A DNA stretch of 26,169 bases from Leptospirales bacterium (GTDB taxonomy: Bacteria > Spirochaetota > Leptospiria > Turneriellales > JAOUFE01), in contig JBEQLE010000048.1 in the NCBI GenBank assembly GCA_040326155.1, forward strand, positions 1 to 26,169, given 5' to 3'. Below, piece by piece: positions 5,724-19,675 of this stretch. The notes below the pieces were generated by a model. That model did not search any database. It worked only from the letters and a program-made list of their open reading frames with translations, and was not told the DNA's origin. The position numbers and the translations under genes are program-made. Positions within the stretch are counted from its first letter, which is position 1; every line of letters begins with the position of its first letter.

Positions 5724-6551
5724 TTATCGTTTTGAGAACTGAGAAGCTCGACGAGCTTTGTGTAGTCCGTATTTTTTTCGTTCCACCATACGAGAGTCTC
5801 TGGTTAAGAAACCTGCATCTCTCAGTTGTTTATGGTGTTCAGGGCTGGCTTCATCAAGAGATCTGGAAATACCCATACGAGCAGCTTCAGCTTGTCCTGT
5901 GTTTCCACCGCCATGGACATTTATTTTAATATCATAAGTTTTTGTAAAACCGGTCAGTTCAAGAGGTTGGCGTACTTTGCGAACATCAGCCGGTTTTTTA
6001 AAGAATTCTTCAAGAGGTTTTTTATTTACTGTAATGATGCCACTGCCTTTAACCATTTTAACGCGAGCAACAGCATTTTTACGACGACCCGTAAATATTT
6101 CCCCTACTCGTTTTTCAGAAGAAGTTTTTGGCTCGGGTTTCGTATGCACTGGCTTCCCTTCAGTCTTGGCTTTAGCTACAGGCTTTGCTGCTGGTTTGGC
6201 TTCGGCTTTAACTGCAGGTTTTGCTTCGGCTGCGGGTTTTGCTTCAGCTACAGGTTTTACTTCTGCTGCAGGTTTTGCTTCTGCTGCAGGTTTTGCTTCG
6301 GCTGCGGGTTTTGCTTCTGCTGCAGGTTTTGCTTCTGCTGCAGGTTTTGCTTCTGCTGCAGGTTTTGCTTCTGCTGCAGGTTTTGCTTCTGCTGCGGGTT
6401 TTGCTTCAGCTGCAGGTTTTGCTTCTGCTGCGGGTTTTGCTTCAGTTGCTGGTTTTGCTTCTGCTGCTGGTTTTGCTTCTGCTTCAGGTTTTGCTTCGGC
6501 TGCGGGTTTTTTTTCTTCCTCAGAAGAGTTTTCGTTATTTATTTCAGACAT
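5724..6551 (-). CDS. rpsI: 30S ribosomal protein S9 with long N-terminal Ala/Glu/Lys/Pro extension
   Basis: TGRRKNAVARV, VHGGGNTGQAEAARMGISR and LTRDSRMVERKKYGLHKARRASQFSKR. Follows rplM, with GAGG RBS before ATG 6551. Confidence 0.97.
   Translation of the reverse strand: MSEINNENSSEEEKKPAAEAKPEAEAKPAAEAKPATEAKPAAEAKPAAEAKPAAEAKPAAEAKPAAEAKPAAEAKPAAEAKPAAEAKPAAEAKPAAEVKPVAEAKPAAEAKPAVKAEAKPAAKPVAKAKTEGKPVHTKPEPKTSSEKRVGEIFTGRRKNAVARVKMVKGSGIITVNKKPLEEFFKKPADVRKVRQPLELTGFTKTYDIKINVHGGGNTGQAEAARMGISRSLDEASPEHHKQLRDAGFLTRDSRMVERKKYGLHKARRASQFSKR
6216..6503 (-). repeat. In-frame 18-bp tandem repeat, 16 units encoding AAEAKP and variants
   Basis: 288 nt of (A/G)GGTTTTGCTTC(T/G/A)GCTGC-type units within the rpsI 5' region. 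Confidence 0.95.
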
Positions 6552-13710: not shown

Positions 13711-14214
13711 ATGAGTAAAAATGAAGCTGACAATAGTAACAACACGAATAAGAGTAATGAATTTTTCTACCATGAAATTCCGAGTCAAAAAAACATTGCC
13801 CTTGTTGCCCATGATAATCGCAAAAAAGATCTAATTGATTGGGTAAAAACCCACCAGGGTACTTTAAAGAATCATACTTTATCGGGTACGGGTACAACGG
13901 GTAGTCTGCTTACGGAGGCAACCGGACTCGAAATAAAATGTTTTGCCAGTGGGCCGCTCGGAGGGGACCAGCAAATTGGAGCTGAAATATCTTATGGAAA
14001 TATTGACCTGTTGATTTTCTTCTGGGATCCTCTTGCCGCCCAGCCGCATGACCCTGACGTGAAGGCGTTGCTGCGTTTATCAGTCCTGTTTAATGTACCT
14101 ACCGCGTGTAATCGATCTTCTGCTGATTTTCTAATTGCAGCTGAACATTTTCATAAAAGTTATACGAAACGAGTTGTCAATTATGCGGCAAAAAAACCAA
14201 AACCGCCTGTTTAA
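13711..14214 (+). CDS. mgsA: Methylglyoxal synthase
   Basis: IALVAHDNRK, GTGTTG, SGPLGGDQQIGA and FFWDPLAAQPHDPDVKALLR. Confidence 0.97.
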   Translation: MSKNEADNSNNTNKSNEFFYHEIPSQKNIALVAHDNRKKDLIDWVKTHQGTLKNHTLSGTGTTGSLLTEATGLEIKCFASGPLGGDQQIGAEISYGNIDLLIFFWDPLAAQPHDPDVKALLRLSVLFNVPTACNRSSADFLIAAEHFHKSYTKRVVNYAAKKPKPPV

Positions 14215-14567
14215 GAACTGCTCTCTTCCATTTCGTCGTCGTAGATTTCCCCACCGGCGGTATCCGATACAATGCTGTGAAAATCGACCCTGAACCACTC
14301 ATTAAAAGCTTTTCGATTGCGTTTTTCAGGCCAAAGCGATTCATCGGTGTACCAGGCATTCAGCTCATTTTTAAACAGAGTTTCATAGTTCAGATCCAGC
14401 CAACGATCCAGAAATTCTCCGTCTTCTACCGAAATTAGATATACAGTCCCTTCGGACTCTGCGTTTTCATCTTCAATTTCAGAATTTTCACTATCCGGAT
14501 TACATTTGTCCAGCCACTGTAAAAACGGCTCTTGATATTTTAATATAATTGCACACCTGTTTACCAT
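14211..14567 (-). CDS. Conserved-looking acidic hypothetical protein
   Basis: 118 aa (NR.AIILK...PFLQWL ... FKNELNAWYTDESLWP..R...F.EWF). AAGGAAG RBS; stop overlaps the mgsA stop. Confidence 0.8.
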   Translation of the reverse strand: MVNRCAIILKYQEPFLQWLDKCNPDSENSEIEDENAESEGTVYLISVEDGEFLDRWLDLNYETLFKNELNAWYTDESLWPEKRNRKAFNEWFRVDFHSIVSDTAGGEIYDDEMEESSS

Positions 14568-14691
14568 TGTTCTTCCTTACGAATAAATAATTCTATGTTA
14601 ACCTGTTTCATACTCTATTGCTTTGTTTAGAGTTCACACGCATAGTAGAAAATATTATTCAAACAGTCTAATATTCACATATAATAATTTA

Positions 14692-14719
14692 TTGCCGTCA
14701 GGTCTCAATTTTTTATACT
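14692..14719 (+). promoter_or_regulatory. Sigma70-type promoter candidate
   Basis: TTGCCG (14692-14697), 16-bp spacer, TATACT (14714-14719), with AT-rich upstream sequence. Confidence 0.5.
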
Positions 14720-14724
14720 GCCGG

Positions 14725-14789
14725 TTCGAGAGCCCGGATCTCCTTGCGAGAGCTTACCCTGAATACCTATCACCGGGCTTTCTTTTTTT
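14725..14789 (+). ncRNA. Candidate ~65-nt small RNA or attenuator leader
   Basis: Begins just after the promoter. Stem GAGAGCCCGG (14728-14737) / CCGGGCTTTC (14773-14782) encloses a small CTC-CTTGC-GAG hairpin and is followed by T7. Family not recognised. Confidence 0.4.
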
Positions 14790-14793
14790 AATG

Positions 14794-15074
14794 CACAAAA
14801 AAGTCCTTCGGCTTTTTTGTGTCGCTTCGTTCGATTATCATTTAAAGTTTATCTGTTTTCAAAAAGCGTGGTTTTTGAAAACCTGCTTCGTAGTATATTA
14901 CTAAAAAGTCCTTCGGTTTCCTTAGTCCGTCAAAAAATCCTTCGGTTTTTTGAGCGTCGCTTCGTTCGATTTTCGTTTAAAGTATTTTGTTGCCAAAAAA
15001 CGTCGTTTTTGGCAACTCGCTTCGTGGTATTATATTAGCTTCGTTCGATTATTGTTTGAAGTTTATCTGGTTTT
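14794..15074. repeat. Structured repeat array: two ~135-bp units plus a partial third, made of hairpins followed by GCTTCGT
   Basis: GCTTCGT at 14824, 14885, 14959, 15019 and 15038. CCTTCGG loops at 14805, 14910 and 14939. Hairpins at 14794-14821, 14855-14882, 14900-14926 (degenerate), 14930-14953 and 14989-15016. Confidence 0.85.
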
Positions 15075-15237
15075 AAATACTTTCGCTGACACAGGAAGGT
15101 GTTGTGTGACATTCATATTGTTTCTACTCTTTTATCTAAATTAGGTATTTTTTGATGATATTAATGACACAATAGGGTATTTTATATTTACATTCCTAAT
15201 CAGTATACAGTTATAGCTTAGTCTTGGAAAATATTTC

Positions 15238-17364
15238 ATGAACAATGTAGAATTAAACATAAATTCATATATTCAACCAGATCCCTTCTGGCTAAACTAT
15301 AGTAATGAAATCAATCGATTTGCTGGTCTTCTCGTTAAAAATCCATTTTTTCAACGAATGAAAAATACTACCTTTTTAGGTATATTATCTCCTTACTTTC
15401 ATGAATATACTAAAAGTAATAGTCCAATACACCTAAGCAGAAAATACATTGATGGCAACAGGCTGGACCATTCTTTAAATATGGCGGCATTACTGATAAA
15501 CCTATATGATTCTAACTTTGAAAACATAAAACACAGCGATAATTTAAAAGAAGAGATTATTCGTTATGCTGTTGTTTGGTGTATACTTCATGACTTAACG
15601 ACCTGGCCAGTTTCTCATACTTCAGAACCAGCCTTTGAGAATATTTTTAATACCTCTCACAAAGAAATACTATTTTCTATGATCAATAATTCTAAAAATT
15701 TACCACGTGAAATGTGGCTGGGTGATACGCTGGCTGATATTAATATCAACATTAATGATATATTGTGCCTACTAAAAAAAATGAAACCAAATAACGAAAA
15801 CCTAATACCACTTTATAACTTAATCAGTTCTCCCATAAATCCTGATACAATTGAAGGTATGTGGCGAGCCAGCCCAGTTTTTATGAGCAAAAATAGAATC
15901 AACCATCCAATTAAAGTATACTCAAACATTGAAGTATTAATGACTAATGATATAATGATTAAGCATGGGAAAAGGGGTAATTTATTAAATTTTTGGAAAA
16001 ATAAGTCTATTGTGTATAAAGATTTTATCAATAAAGACAAGGTTGTTAGGTGGGAGTCTAGTTGGACATTGGCTATACAAAAATCTGTAGGCAATATTGA
16101 CTTGTTAGAATCCTTTTATTTGGATGAAGACGAATTAATCAAAAAAGCAAAAAAATACTTTTCGGAGGATGTCACAGAAATTCATCGTTACAAACCTCCG
16201 CATGTTTACCCTATTTTTAAAGAAAAAAATTTAAAAAAAGGTACACCGAAATATTTAAACAGTTTAAAGTCCAAATTATTAGCTTACCCTAATTTTTTGT
16301 ATAAAGATGGAAGGATAAATCAAATGGAAGAAAAACATTTATTTGAATCTTTAAATGGTAATGTTAAATCTGAAACCTATGCCAAAATAGAGAGTACTTT
16401 TAATTATTCCAAAACCTTGGTGCAAAACATTGCAAAAATCATTCAGAATTACATTGTAGAAAATAAATTAAAAAAAGAAAATATTTGCTTTGCAGTTATG
16501 GGATCAATTGGCCGGTTTGAAGCCGGTGAAACTTCTGACATTGACATCATTCCAATATTCAGTGATGAGGGTTCTAAAGCATTGTTTGAATCTGAAAATC
16601 ACAATAAACTATTTCGAAAACATCTGCGCGAGCATTCCTCCAGGGATGTATCTAAAGGTGAAGACATTACTGCTCCAGTTACTATTGCTGAATTGATTGA
16701 TCCTGAAACAATTGGGGGTCAAAAGGATAATAGTAATACTCTAACAAGACGTTTGTTGTTAATCACAGAAGGCGTACAGGTTGGAGGCAACTTAGATTTG
16801 AATTTGATTAAAACTGAAATTCTTAAATCATATGCTGATCAGGAAAGAACTAGTGGTCGCAATGTCTTGTCATTAATGAATGATATTGCAAGATATTATA
16901 GAACCCTACTTATTGAATTTAAAGCTAAAATTGATGTTGAAGATAAAGCTTGGGGCATAAGAAACGCTAAATTGCGACACAATCGTAAGTTCTGGTATTT
17001 TTCATGTATATTGGCATTCGTTATGAACGATTCAAAAAATGAAAGCATTGAGAATCAAATAGACTTTTTAATAAAATCGTTCAACACACCAGCATATTTG
17101 CGCTATTCACAAATCTTAAATAAGTTCCCAGTTGAATATGGTGAACTATTGGCTTCTTATTTTTGGTTCATTGAATTTATTGGTTTAAAAGATAAAAGAG
17201 CATTATTAGGTAAGGTTCGTTTTCAAAATAGAAATAATATGGATCAAATAGATTATCAAGCTGTTAAATTGAATTCAGGAAGATTGCATAATGAGATGAT
17301 TTCGATTATACTTAGTCTACCAGAAAAATATAAGAAAAAATTGCTTGATTGGTTCCTTCTATAA
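15238..17364 (+). CDS. Fusion of HD-superfamily phosphohydrolase (YdhJ/SAMHD1-like) and Pol-beta-superfamily nucleotidyltransferase
   Basis: N-half: NPFFQRMK..TFLG, RLDHSL (H78), ILHDL...PVSHTSE (H118-D119), NPDT (D203). C-half: AVMGSIGRFEAGETSDIDII (G422-S423, D434-x-D436), IGGQKDNSNTLTRRLLLITEG and LMNDIARYYRTL. Visibly more AT-rich than its flanks. Confidence 0.8.
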   Translation: MNNVELNINSYIQPDPFWLNYSNEINRFAGLLVKNPFFQRMKNTTFLGILSPYFHEYTKSNSPIHLSRKYIDGNRLDHSLNMAALLINLYDSNFENIKHSDNLKEEIIRYAVVWCILHDLTTWPVSHTSEPAFENIFNTSHKEILFSMINNSKNLPREMWLGDTLADINININDILCLLKKMKPNNENLIPLYNLISSPINPDTIEGMWRASPVFMSKNRINHPIKVYSNIEVLMTNDIMIKHGKRGNLLNFWKNKSIVYKDFINKDKVVRWESSWTLAIQKSVGNIDLLESFYLDEDELIKKAKKYFSEDVTEIHRYKPPHVYPIFKEKNLKKGTPKYLNSLKSKLLAYPNFLYKDGRINQMEEKHLFESLNGNVKSETYAKIESTFNYSKTLVQNIAKIIQNYIVENKLKKENICFAVMGSIGRFEAGETSDIDIIPIFSDEGSKALFESENHNKLFRKHLREHSSRDVSKGEDITAPVTIAELIDPETIGGQKDNSNTLTRRLLLITEGVQVGGNLDLNLIKTEILKSYADQERTSGRNVLSLMNDIARYYRTLLIEFKAKIDVEDKAWGIRNAKLRHNRKFWYFSCILAFVMNDSKNESIENQIDFLIKSFNTPAYLRYSQILNKFPVEYGELLASYFWFIEFIGLKDKRALLGKVRFQNRNNMDQIDYQAVKLNSGRLHNEMISIILSLPEKYKKKLLDWFLL

Positions 17365-17406
17365 TATACGAAAATAGTTAATATTTAATGTGAACTTCAG
17401 ATAACC

Positions 17407-17462
17407 AGTCTGTAGAATAACCCTATTCCAGGTCGGCACGAAACTTGAGGTTTGGTTCTACA
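17407..17462. repeat. Degenerate copy of the TIR of the 297-392 element
   Basis: AGTCTGTAGAATAA (17407-17420) is identical to 298-311. Partial inverted TTCTACA at 17456-17462. Confidence 0.5.
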
Positions 17463-17602
17463 ATCATTTCATTGGTAACATTGATCCAAAAACTTTTTCC
17501 TTTACGCCAAATATAGACCAGAGTAAGGTGATTAAAATAGTATTATTGTTACGGATGAGACTATGCTGCTTTCGGTGGTTTACTCTGGAAAAAGGATTTT
17601 TT

Positions 17603-18715
17603 ATGTTTAAATATTATCTCAGAACGATTGCTGTCAGCTGGAAAATATTTGGTTTTAGCAGAGTTTTATTTTTTTCCATTTTCGTGGAAGCTTTGTTAAG
17701 AGGGTTCACTTTTTTCACCCTTTTTCTTGATAATATCTTTTATCGAAAATATAAAACCATCAAGGTTGAAAAACCAATTTTTATTTTGGGACACCCTCGA
17801 AGCGGCACGACTTTTCTGCATAACATGTTGACTTCAACCGATGAAACTGCCGTTTTTAAGACCTGGCATATTTTTTTTCCCGCTCTCACGGCGCGCCTGT
17901 TTATTAAACCGCTTATTAACAGACTAATACGAAAAGGTAAAACAGTACTGGTTCCAGAATCGGCGGGCCATAAGACTGATCTGAACCAGGTTGACGAAGA
18001 AGAGCTTTTATTTCTCAATAATTACGACACGCAATTTACTACGATTGGTTTACTTGGCCTTGATGAAAATGAATATCCCGAACTACACTTTCAAGACAAA
18101 CAACCGCGGTCACGGCGAATGAAATCAATGAAATTTTTTAATGGCTGTCTGCAAAGACATATGCTTTACACCGGGAAGCGACGCGTCATTGCTCAAACAC
18201 ATTTTTCAACTATGCGCATCAAGACACTGGCAGAGTTTTATCCTGATGCTACATTCATCTTCGTGGTTCGCAGCCCCCATCAAACAGTCCCCTCTTTTTT
18301 CTCTCTCCTGCATAAGGCAATTGACTATCGTTGGGGTTTGAAAAAAATCCCGGAGAAAGTTCTACATCGCTACAACAAAAAGCGTTACCAGGCAATGATA
18401 GACCTGTATAGATACTTTTACGATCTGGACACAAACAATGAACTTCCACCCGGCCGTGTATTGACCCTGCCCTACGACAAACTGCTCAAAGATCTAGAAT
18501 CAGGTTTTGATGAGATATGCGCTTTAACAGGAATTGAACCAAGCGACGAACTACGAGACAAGGTCCGAAAACAAGCAGCAAAACAAAAAGACTTTAAAAG
18601 AAAGCACAAAGTTATGGAACTCGGGCAGTTCGGGATAACTCGTGAAATGATTACCCGAGATTTTGCCTTTGTTTTTAAAAGGTATGGAATCTCCTCTGAA
18701 CATAAAGATTCATAA
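17603..18715 (+). CDS. PAPS-dependent sulfotransferase (Sulfotransfer_3 type)
   Basis: 5'-PSB loop PIFILGHPRSGTTFLH and 3'-PB FIFVVRSPHQTVPS. ATG 17603 after AAAGGA is preferred over GTG 17528. Confidence 0.9.
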   Translation: MFKYYLRTIAVSWKIFGFSRVLFFSIFVEALLRGFTFFTLFLDNIFYRKYKTIKVEKPIFILGHPRSGTTFLHNMLTSTDETAVFKTWHIFFPALTARLFIKPLINRLIRKGKTVLVPESAGHKTDLNQVDEEELLFLNNYDTQFTTIGLLGLDENEYPELHFQDKQPRSRRMKSMKFFNGCLQRHMLYTGKRRVIAQTHFSTMRIKTLAEFYPDATFIFVVRSPHQTVPSFFSLLHKAIDYRWGLKKIPEKVLHRYNKKRYQAMIDLYRYFYDLDTNNELPPGRVLTLPYDKLLKDLESGFDEICALTGIEPSDELRDKVRKQAAKQKDFKRKHKVMELGQFGITREMITRDFAFVFKRYGISSEHKDS

Positions 18716-18745: not shown

Positions 18746-19675
18746 TCACTCTTTTACTTGAAGATGGCGCAACTTGCTGAGCAACTTTTTATTTCTCTTA
18801 CCCAGAGTTTTTATCAAATTGAGTGTTTTATTAGGGTCCTGAAAAAACATTTGATCAAACGATTTTTTAGTCAAAGCCATCACTTGCAAAGGTGTGGTTG
18901 CGATAATGTCCGCAGTTCTTGGCTCATTAAAAAGAAGAGCCAGCTCTCCAAAGACATCCCCTTTTGTTAGAGTATCAACGATCGTGCTGGTGCCAGGTAA
19001 TCTTACATCAACATCGCCTTCAATAATAATATAAGCTCGCTGCCCGCGTTCCCCGCCGCGAATGACATATTCGTCCACTTCATAAAAACTTCGCTCATAC
19101 TCACCTATATAATCTTGAAGCTGGTTTTCTTCTACAAAGTGTATAAAAAAATCAGAGAGATTTCTGGCGTCGAGCATGAGCGGAATCATACGAGCATTCA
19201 TATGCGGTTCGGTAAACTCTTCGCCAACCTGCTCATAACCGACTCTTTTAAGTAGCCTGGCAATCGCCGGGTTGATCGGGGCAACCACATGGGTAACACC
19301 ATTGGATATACCAAAGTAAGTTGCCATTAACATCAGACCTGTTGTAATTTTCGGGGTTCGGTAGGCGTCGCTGACGCAAAACATACCACAGTGCATGATC
19401 AATGATTCTCCGGAAATATGAGGTCGAAAGTCAAAGTATTCATCTGCCGGTAAACCTACCTCCGAATCGATCGATAGGCGTAAGCTGCCAACCACGTTGC
19501 CTTCTTTTTCTACGACTAGATTTGATGTTGTGGGAAAAGCGTCAAAGCGATCCATTAGTCTGCCCGTTGGATCTTTTTCAAGCAACTTCTCTTCTTCATG
19601 AAAAACCTTATGACGAACTTTGAAAACTTCATCAATGGTTTCGGGTGTTTTTGCTATTTTTATTGTTGTGGCCAT
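18746..19675 (-). CDS. FeeM-like (N-acyl amino acid synthase/GNAT) domain fused to a C-terminal cyclic-nucleotide-binding domain
   Basis: N-terminal IKIA...VFKVRHKVF..E, DRFD, VVGSLRL, GLPADEYFDF and INP. C-terminal YIIIEGDVDV and phosphate-binding cassette FGELALLFNEPRTADIIA. Confidence 0.8.
   Translation of the reverse strand: MATTIKIAKTPETIDEVFKVRHKVFHEEEKLLEKDPTGRLMDRFDAFPTTSNLVVEKEGNVVGSLRLSIDSEVGLPADEYFDFRPHISGESLIMHCGMFCVSDAYRTPKITTGLMLMATYFGISNGVTHVVAPINPAIARLLKRVGYEQVGEEFTEPHMNARMIPLMLDARNLSDFFIHFVEENQLQDYIGEYERSFYEVDEYVIRGGERGQRAYIIIEGDVDVRLPGTSTIVDTLTKGDVFGELALLFNEPRTADIIATTPLQVMALTKKSFDQMFFQDPNKTLNLIKTLGKRNKKLLSKLRHLQVKE

Follow-up and report, generated by a model that had tools for sequence, protein, structure and literature searches.

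The 708-residue gene and its two halves

The stretch of DNA analysed here (the window) comprises 26,169 nucleotides (nt) from a Leptospirales bacterium (GenBank assembly GCA_040326155.1, contig JBEQLE010000048.1), and on its forward strand, at 15238..17364, lies a single open reading frame (ORF) in which a predicted HD phosphohydrolase half is followed by a predicted Pol-beta nucleotidyltransferase (NTase) half. The ORF encodes 708 amino acids (aa), with the stop codon within these coordinates. It has no in-frame stops, against 57 and 100 in the other two frames, and its GC content is 0.308, compared with 0.402 in the remaining window and 0.39-0.42 in the adjoining genes. By Pfam and PADLOC scans, the genes beside it encode a GGDEF sensor, methylglyoxal synthase, a sulfotransferase and an acyl-amino-acid synthase. 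A first-pass annotation, made from the sequence alone, had therefore rightly described an uninterrupted, AT-rich ORF set among ordinary genes. Its two domain calls, an HD dNTPase-like half and a Pol-beta NTase with a helical domain, are likewise borne out by profiles and folds, and the residues and motifs it singled out (H78, H118-D119, D203, the GS-x10-DxD site and the helical-domain motifs) all lie at the positions it gave. These motifs are not there by chance, since they are conserved across 70 HD-half and 62 NTase-half homologues. The 708-aa protein has no NCBIfam family, a single-sequence PDB search with it gave no match, and Pfam returns only sub-threshold DUF294, NTP_transf_2 and HD matches.

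The N-terminal half (residues 1-351; 15238..16290, forward strand) is predicted from its model, Foldseek, profile and conservation to adopt the SAMHD1/EF1143-type HD phosphohydrolase fold. An AlphaFold2 model based on an alignment of 70 sequences has a predicted local distance difference test (pLDDT) score of 92.1, and the Foldseek comparison that the first-pass annotation had proposed for this half gave EF1143 (3irh, 4lrl), BT4208 and SAMHD1 as best matches, at TMq 0.50-0.58. Against PDB sequences, the HD-family profile matches 2hek with an E value of 1e-15 and EF1143 (2o6i) with 5e-12. Four residues are invariant in the 70 homologues (H78, S126, H127 and D203) and three more are at least 90% conserved (H118, D119 and E130). 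By this conservation, both the H..HD..D metal site, formed by H78 (15469-71), H118-D119 (15589-94) and D203 (15844-46), and the H-x-x-E dyad, H127/E130 (15616-27), appear intact, all on the forward strand. The report on the Clover defence system (Yamaguchi et al. 2025, PMC12265719) terms this dyad catalytic in CloA and Dgt. The half further shares an FQRL-type N-terminal motif with SAMHD1, EF1143, Aq_1910 (2hek) and BT4208; it differs from them in being shorter, in always being coupled to an NTase and in its substrate-contact motifs.

Where SAMHD1-type deoxynucleoside triphosphate hydrolases (dNTPases) have the motif DRxDYxxRD, the entire HD family has DT[ILV][ED]G..R, as alignments with 2hek and EF1143 show. 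In place of HDxGH, the clade of the window protein has HD[IL][AT][TN]W, and the Pseudomonadota branch retains HDIGH. At these two sites the window protein reads PDTIEGMWRA and HDLTTW, respectively, with FLG instead of QLG. The first-pass annotation had noticed these departures (HDLTT for HDIGH, PDTIEG for DxDRxDY, FLG for QLG) and saw in them a hint of a changed substrate or a sensor role; the motifs are indeed atypical, but a function as sensor only is not indicated, because the H127/E130 dyad is kept, the histidine loss is clade-specific and true dGTPases also lack that histidine, a CloA homologue reading HDLGN. Elsewhere in the half, Y260 is invariant in the HD family and a tail of the form RYKxPxxY is conserved (RYKPPHVY at residues 317-324, forward strand, by alignment). 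Both are candidate nucleotidyl acceptor sites in the HD partner. In PADLOC scans the N-terminal half had no match, and the HD partner matches no PDC profile.

In the C-terminal half (residues 363-708), an N-terminal helix and Pol-beta NTase core (residues 363-520; 16324..16797, forward strand) are recognised by Pfam, PADLOC, alignment, model and fold. They are followed by a helical domain of the GlnE/DUF294_C/KNTase_C type (residues 521-708; 16798..17361, forward strand), assigned by alignment, model, fold and the family relationships described in PMC3710099. The active site consists of G422-S423, ten intervening residues and D434-I-D436; IGGQKDNSNTLTRRLLLITE follows at residues 492-511, NDIARYYRT at 548-556 (NDIxRYYRT in the family) and WGIRNAKLR at 572-580 (WxxRNxKLRHxRK in the family). 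Across the 62 homologues, the glycine of the GS pair, R426 and E511 are invariant, and conservation is 90% or more at S423, D434 and D436. E511 is probably the third carboxylate of the NTase. Pfam DUF294 (PF03445; gathering cut-off 21 bits) scores 20.7 bits on the whole protein and 22.2 bits on the C-terminal half alone, and at E ≤ 0.01 it matches 46 of the 62 members of the family; the Pfam scan did not detect DUF294_C.

An AlphaFold2 model of this half (pLDDT 93.5, alignment of 62 sequences) was compared with 48,161 PDB representatives. Its closest fold matches are the AMPylation domain of DrrA (SidM), with a Z score of 15.5, and the domains of GlnE, with Z scores of 14.2 and 14.3; 261-267 residues are aligned, over the NTase core and helical domain alike. 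The next match is an MNT antitoxin (7ae2_B, Z 9.0); HalB scores Z 5.5. Foldseek, the fold check suggested by the first-pass annotation for this half, agrees that the DrrA and GlnE domains are the best matches. No CD-NTase was among the 50 matches listed in the fold comparison, Foldseek reached CD-NTases only at E > 0.1, and the SMODS Pfam profile matches one of the 62 members, with an E value of 0.009. The G[SG]x9-13DxD signature of GlnE and DrrA is present as G422-S423, D434 and D436. Sequence identity to them is, however, only 8-12%, the Pfam GlnE profile matches 6 of the 62 members at E ≤ 0.01, and the window family lacks the glutamine-synthetase or Rab context of these enzymes.

The same half matches the PADLOC profile PDC-M70A over residues 366-693 (E 2e-26), with split homologues reaching 5e-56. 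PDC systems are candidates obtained by "guilt-by-embedding" in BREX, DISARM and type I restriction-modification loci (Payne et al. 2024, 10.1101/2024.01.29.577857), and PDC-M70 receives no mention in the main text of that source. The resemblance is confined to the NTase component, the partner here being an HD protein; PDC-M70B, a separate profile of 238 positions, was found neither in this genome nor in five others carrying the HD-NTase pair.

A two-gene operon and its fused members

A word-indexed search retrieved no full-length relative. Its matches were six stand-alone proteins, about 400 aa in length, aligned over residues 9-324 at 32-35% identity, and 63 stand-alone proteins, mostly of about 343 aa and mostly at 35-45% identity, aligned with the C-terminal half. 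In an exhaustive search with the whole protein, 1,070 representatives matched at E ≤ 0.001, matches to either half included. Among the matches listed (149 other proteins), P0071, P0142, P0184 and P0187 span both halves and the rest only one.

The stand-alone halves are encoded side by side. Of 80 genome loci retrieved by NTase alignment and then searched with the HD half, 71 have an HD homologue immediately upstream, in the same orientation as the NTase gene. Another three have it downstream and convergent, three end at a contig edge with no room for one, two have room but no HD homologue, and one has only a weak, distant HD match. The interval from HD to NTase gene ranges from -56 to +63 nt, with overlaps of -4 and -17 frequent. 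Metagenome loci retrieved from the other side, by HD alignment, contain the NTase in four of seven cases. The pairing of an HD hydrolase with a GlnE-type NTase is thus conserved and recurrently fused, and both enzymes are apparently active, to judge from their active-site residues.

Seven proteins carry both domains: the window protein, P0071, P0142, P0184, P0187 and the products of loci L048 and L059. In a FastTree phylogeny of 177 NTase domains, which provides local supports only, these seven fused rows require six changes of state, at least four of them forced by well-supported branches. A fused state that arose at least four times argues for physical and functional coupling of the halves. 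Comparing split with fused homologues, as the first-pass annotation had advised, thus revises its proposal of a single-gene system: with 71 of 80 loci paired and 7 of 177 NTases fused, the 708-aa gene is best read as a rare case in which the two genes of a widespread operon have fused in frame.

The junction itself retains what looks like a trace of the split arrangement. Eleven codons (NFLYKDGRINQ; 16291..16323, forward strand) occupy, in the alignments, the place of the HD stop codon and the short gap or overlap of the split operons. Directly after them stands Met363 (16324..16326), where the alignment of split NTases begins and which would be the start codon of the ancestral NTase gene. A Shine-Dalgarno-like AAGGA (16311-16315, forward strand) lies 8 nt ahead of it. 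Together the two resemble a ribosome-binding site and start codon left over from the NTase gene; internal initiation at Met363 is possible.

A rival explanation is that the fusion is an artefact of assembly or sequencing, with two genes in the organism. The window protein has no close fused relative, sits by itself on a long branch of the NTase tree and forms a 90% cluster with one member from one contig, and the assembly is in 171 contigs. Nevertheless, we consider an artefact very improbable. The two halves share one frame, and conserved HD-tail residues (P337, L343, L347 and P351) extend to within 11 codons of the relic start. Because both alternative frames are closed at the junction, being filled with stops, a frameshift error cannot account for the fusion, and only loss of the stop codon, by a base substitution within it, would do. 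Independent fused forms, moreover, exist in the six other proteins named above.

No match to the window gene was found in any of 60 other genomes drawn from its family (3), order (30) and class (27), 51 of them with a completeness of 90% or more. Synteny comparison offers little to anchor the locus, the neighbouring sulfotransferase gene occurring in none of five related genomes and the GGDEF gene having dozens of paralogues. The gene is accessory and compositionally foreign, and was probably acquired horizontally. Gene clusters that loci share beyond the pair are limited to close relatives, and the Pfam-identified neighbours of the pair are unrelated to one another (serpin, MutS, dUTPase, relaxase, recombinases, PIN and ThsB-like TIR). 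A 4,499-bp E. coli plasmid (NZ_CP092257.1), on which the HD gene spans the record origin and the NTase gene comes next, has Rop as its only other annotated gene and is the sole occurrence of the pair in 5,426 complete E. coli genomes. The pair is also found on one IMG/VR contig. It is accessory and mobile in character, and its distribution is sporadic.

Directly upstream of the ORF, 14790-15077 holds two to three copies of a repeat of about 105 nt with small GC-stem hairpins. The unit has 56 matches over many contigs of the genome, often in tandem clusters, and no Rfam match; it is a dispersed intergenic element resembling repetitive extragenic palindromes or miniature inverted-repeat transposable elements (REP/MITE-like). 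No Rfam match was obtained anywhere in 14200-17700, and no tRNAs were found in the window. Elsewhere on the contig, the ribosomal protein S9 gene (5724-6551, reverse strand) has an N-terminal extension of about 150 aa with a weak Pfam match to histidine-rich protein. At 18746-19675 (reverse strand), an N-acyl amino acid synthase domain (FeeM/autoinducer-synthase-like) is fused to a cyclic-nucleotide-binding domain, the latter explaining the weak PADLOC matches of this gene to Pycsar and TIR effectors.

Possible function and competing explanations

The nearest experimental precedent for an HD enzyme paired with an NTase is Clover. According to its report (PMC12265719), CloA is a dTTP-activated dGTPase that is inhibited by p3diT, the product of CloB; operons with a dead NTase are toxic, and the system protects against T5-like phages. 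An analogous pair thus shows by experiment that an NTase can control an HD effector.

With about even confidence, we propose that the family represented by the window protein forms a mobile module of genetic conflict, whose NTase would restrain or tune an HD effector that hydrolyses nucleotides. In its favour stand the conserved pairing with its repeated fusions, the intact active sites, the accessory distribution with a small plasmid carrying little besides the pair, and the Clover precedent. The HD half would be that effector, hydrolysing (deoxy)nucleoside triphosphates and hence potentially toxic, and the NTase half would hold it in check through a nucleotide-derived product. This product might act as a small nucleotide ligand, the part that p3diT from CloB plays towards CloA, or might be a nucleotidyl group bound covalently to the HD partner, in the way that GlnE, DrrA and MntA modify their protein targets. 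The module would serve genetic conflict, either in anti-phage nucleotide depletion or as an addiction module, and fusion would fix a 1:1 stoichiometry of effector and regulator. The MntA-HepT type VII toxin-antitoxin system offers a parallel in its minimal NTase core and in its logic of a partner neutralised by AMPylation. It differs in its HEPN RNase toxin, which has no counterpart here, and in an NTase only a third the size of the window NTase, which has its own helical domain fused. A more specific and, in our view, improbable version holds that this would be a second, independently assembled form of NTase-governed dNTPase immunity, made up of a SAMHD1-type HD enzyme and a GlnE/DrrA-type protein nucleotidyltransferase and controlled covalently instead of by a diffusible signal, in which the NTase nucleotidylylates a tyrosine of the HD enzyme (Y260 or one in RYKxPxxY) and keeps it off until infection; the fused protein would then be a self-modifying, single-chain immune enzyme.

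Several observations weigh against a conflict module, the first of them being the genomic surroundings. PADLOC and Pfam scans find no defence neighbours near the ORF in the window, and a collection of 50,697 phage records gave no match. For the homologous loci, the search for defence islands suggested in the first-pass annotation took the two nearest ORFs on each side at 78 loci, with 262 of 266 selected ORFs compared with PADLOC at E ≤ 1e-10 (four exceeded a size limit, and six near-duplicate loci had been removed before selection). Credible defence genes stand beside the pair at 7 of the 78 loci, amounting to 9 of the 262 ORFs (about 3%) and at most to a modest excess. They comprise a ThsB-like TIR protein (L018), PD-Lambda-5 A and B (L021), AbiEii (L030 and L057), AbiEi with AbiEii (L046), a type I specificity subunit (L043) and an Argonaute-like protein (L054). 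This share is only about twice that of anti-phage systems among bacterial genes, given as 1.5% in a review abstract (PMC13434031). The neighbouring ORFs came from a crude longest-ORF picker, whose spurious ORFs in high-GC loci dilute neighbourhood counts. Defence genes do occur beside the pair, but the association is weak, and a defence role is plausible and weakly supported by the neighbourhood. PADLOC matches at two further loci were set aside, the genes being a relaxase (L016) and a sigma-54 activator (L019) by Pfam, as were partial matches to mad2, LmuA and PbeA.

The proteins and their other partners raise further difficulties. As the substrate motifs of SAMHD1-type enzymes (DRxDYxxRD, HDxGH and QLG) are replaced, the HD substrate may not be a dNTP. 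In a cluster of 13 loci, a gene whose product of about 170 aa belongs to the histidine phosphatase superfamily lies 3' of the NTase gene; of 12 candidates submitted to Pfam, 11 match His_Phos_1 (L022, L024, L028, L029, L034-L037, L045, L050 and L078). This third gene is found in a single branch, from Pseudomonadota and Bacteroidota, with none downstream of the window gene, and could turn over the NTase product. On a plasmid of Rhizobium sp. BT04 (L091; NZ_CP125653.1, 5848-7543), a distant NTase is followed by a histidine phosphatase in the absence of an HD gene, amid glycosyltransferases, major facilitator superfamily (MFS) transporters, a haloacid dehalogenase (HAD) hydrolase and an aminotransferase; this cluster may be a small-molecule pathway. 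That the NTase family keeps other partners as well, with histidine phosphatases lacking an HD gene at some loci and PDC-M70B as another, speaks on the other hand for the conflict module, CloB having a comparable spread of partners. Finally, the first-pass annotation had suggested an oligonucleotide signal as a product of the NTase. This is not favoured on fold grounds, because GlnE and DrrA, which AMPylate proteins, are the nearest matches to the NTase model (Z 14-15.5) and HalB lies far from it; the NTase fold points to protein modification over a diffusible signal.

The same fold lends weight to an alternative that we hold unlikely, namely that the pair is a writer and eraser acting on a third protein. 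The NTase would adenylylate or uridylylate a tyrosine, serine or threonine of a host or phage protein, much as GlnE and DrrA AMPylate tyrosines in other proteins, and the HD enzyme would remove the nucleotide. GlnD provides the precedent: it combines an NTase and an HD domain in one polypeptide, and its HD domain removes uridine monophosphate (UMP). The window protein shares that combination but in the opposite order, HD before NTase, and no ACT or GlnD_UR_UTase domain was detected in the Pfam scan; the contrast with GlnD drawn in the first-pass annotation, a reversed order and no ACT domains, is confirmed. Above all, the HD half is modelled as the large SAMHD1/EF1143 triphosphohydrolase fold with its H-x-x-E dyad and not as the small GlnD type, and no conserved third gene that might encode the target recurs across the loci.

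A metabolic module without any role in conflict is, we think, quite unlikely, although the histidine phosphatase genes and the Rhizobium cluster described above would suit it, and aminoglycoside NTases have the same NTase-plus-helical-domain fold. In such a module the NTase would nucleotidylylate a small molecule, and the HD enzyme, together with the histidine phosphatase where present, would process nucleotide or phosphate intermediates. Against this stand the otherwise mutually unrelated neighbourhoods of the HD-NTase pair, its sporadic distribution and the 4.5-kb plasmid, which holds the pair alone with no pathway context. In the library searched, no paper on this HD-NTase pair or on PDC-M70 turned up; DUF294 combined with anti-phage or with HD and operon terms led only to a 2013 HEPN survey.

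Relation to Clover

Returning to the proposed conflict module, its resemblance to Clover begins with gene order, an HD phosphohydrolase gene coming first and a Pol-beta NTase gene overlapping it. The HD metal motif and H-x-x-E dyad are conserved in both, with CloA residues H69, H117/D118, D242 and H126/E129 (PMC12265719) corresponding in kind to H78, H118-D119, D203 and H127/E130 here. Both systems are accessory and sporadic, and both NTase families have further partners, a comparable spread being described for CloB in Extended Data Fig. 1a of the same report. The differences lie in the enzymes themselves. As a dGTPase of the Dgt type, CloA has about 470-500 aa and a C-terminal helical bundle (HD_assoc), whereas window-type HD proteins have about 350 aa and lie nearest to EF1143, SAMHD1 and 2hek; the ORF in the CloB position has about 266 aa and no detectable profile similarity to the 340-aa window-type NTase. 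In addition, the window protein is fused.

The 266-aa ORF belongs to a genome that carries both systems. Methylobacterium symbioticum SB0023/3 is named as a carrier of a Clover operon in the legend to Fig. 1 of PMC12265719. On its contig 25 (L100, 1369-3667) we found a 501-aa Dgt-type CloA homologue (E 1.7e-126 to PDB 9P8S) and, overlapping it by 8 nt, a 266-aa ORF with the NTase motif GG..SDVDL, followed by a gene with a TerB_N domain. From its position and motif, the 266-aa ORF is presumably CloB. The genome's single window-type NTase lies elsewhere, on contig 38 (L057), in an HD-NTase pair beside AbiEii, and the NTase-family profile run over the whole genome gave no match at the CloA/CloB locus. 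L057 was considered as the Clover operon of the report and rejected, the CloA homologue being on contig 25 of the same genome.

Profile comparisons likewise separate the two systems. With hhalign, the NTase family aligns to the 266-aa ORF at a probability of 0.4%, and the HD family to the M. symbioticum CloA homologue at 87.5%, in an alignment that spans just 82 columns surrounding the HD motif. Against the presumed Salmonella CloA structures 9p8s-9p8v (473 aa), the HD-family profile gives E values of 1.4e-5 to 0.06, covering profile positions 65-126 at most. We take 9P8S-V to be these entries, as the report prints "8P9S-V" beside 9P8W and the entries have 8 chains of 473 aa. The window protein is thus almost certainly no member of the CloA-CloB family, despite the same gene order, the same two enzyme superfamilies and the shared HD motif and dyad, since M. 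symbioticum has a CloA homologue with its 266-aa NTase ORF and, separately, an HD-NTase pair, and since similarity amounts to 0.4% for the NTase and 82 columns for the HD enzyme. On these comparisons it appears to have the layout of Clover while belonging to neither Clover family, analogous and not homologous beyond the superfamily level; by that analogy, it may work like Clover.

Depletion of dNTPs by SAMHD1-type enzymes is an antiviral strategy common to animals and bacteria, and how such enzymes are restrained is only now emerging, with Clover in 2025. The family described here has a Clover-like layout, an HD hydrolase and then an NTase, drawn from different enzyme lineages for both parts. 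If the NTase does regulate the HD enzyme, this architecture would have arisen more than once, possibly with other chemistry, protein nucleotidylylation in place of a dinucleotide signal. The recurrent natural fusions offer a ready single-chain construct for biochemistry, and the E. coli plasmid pair a native test case.

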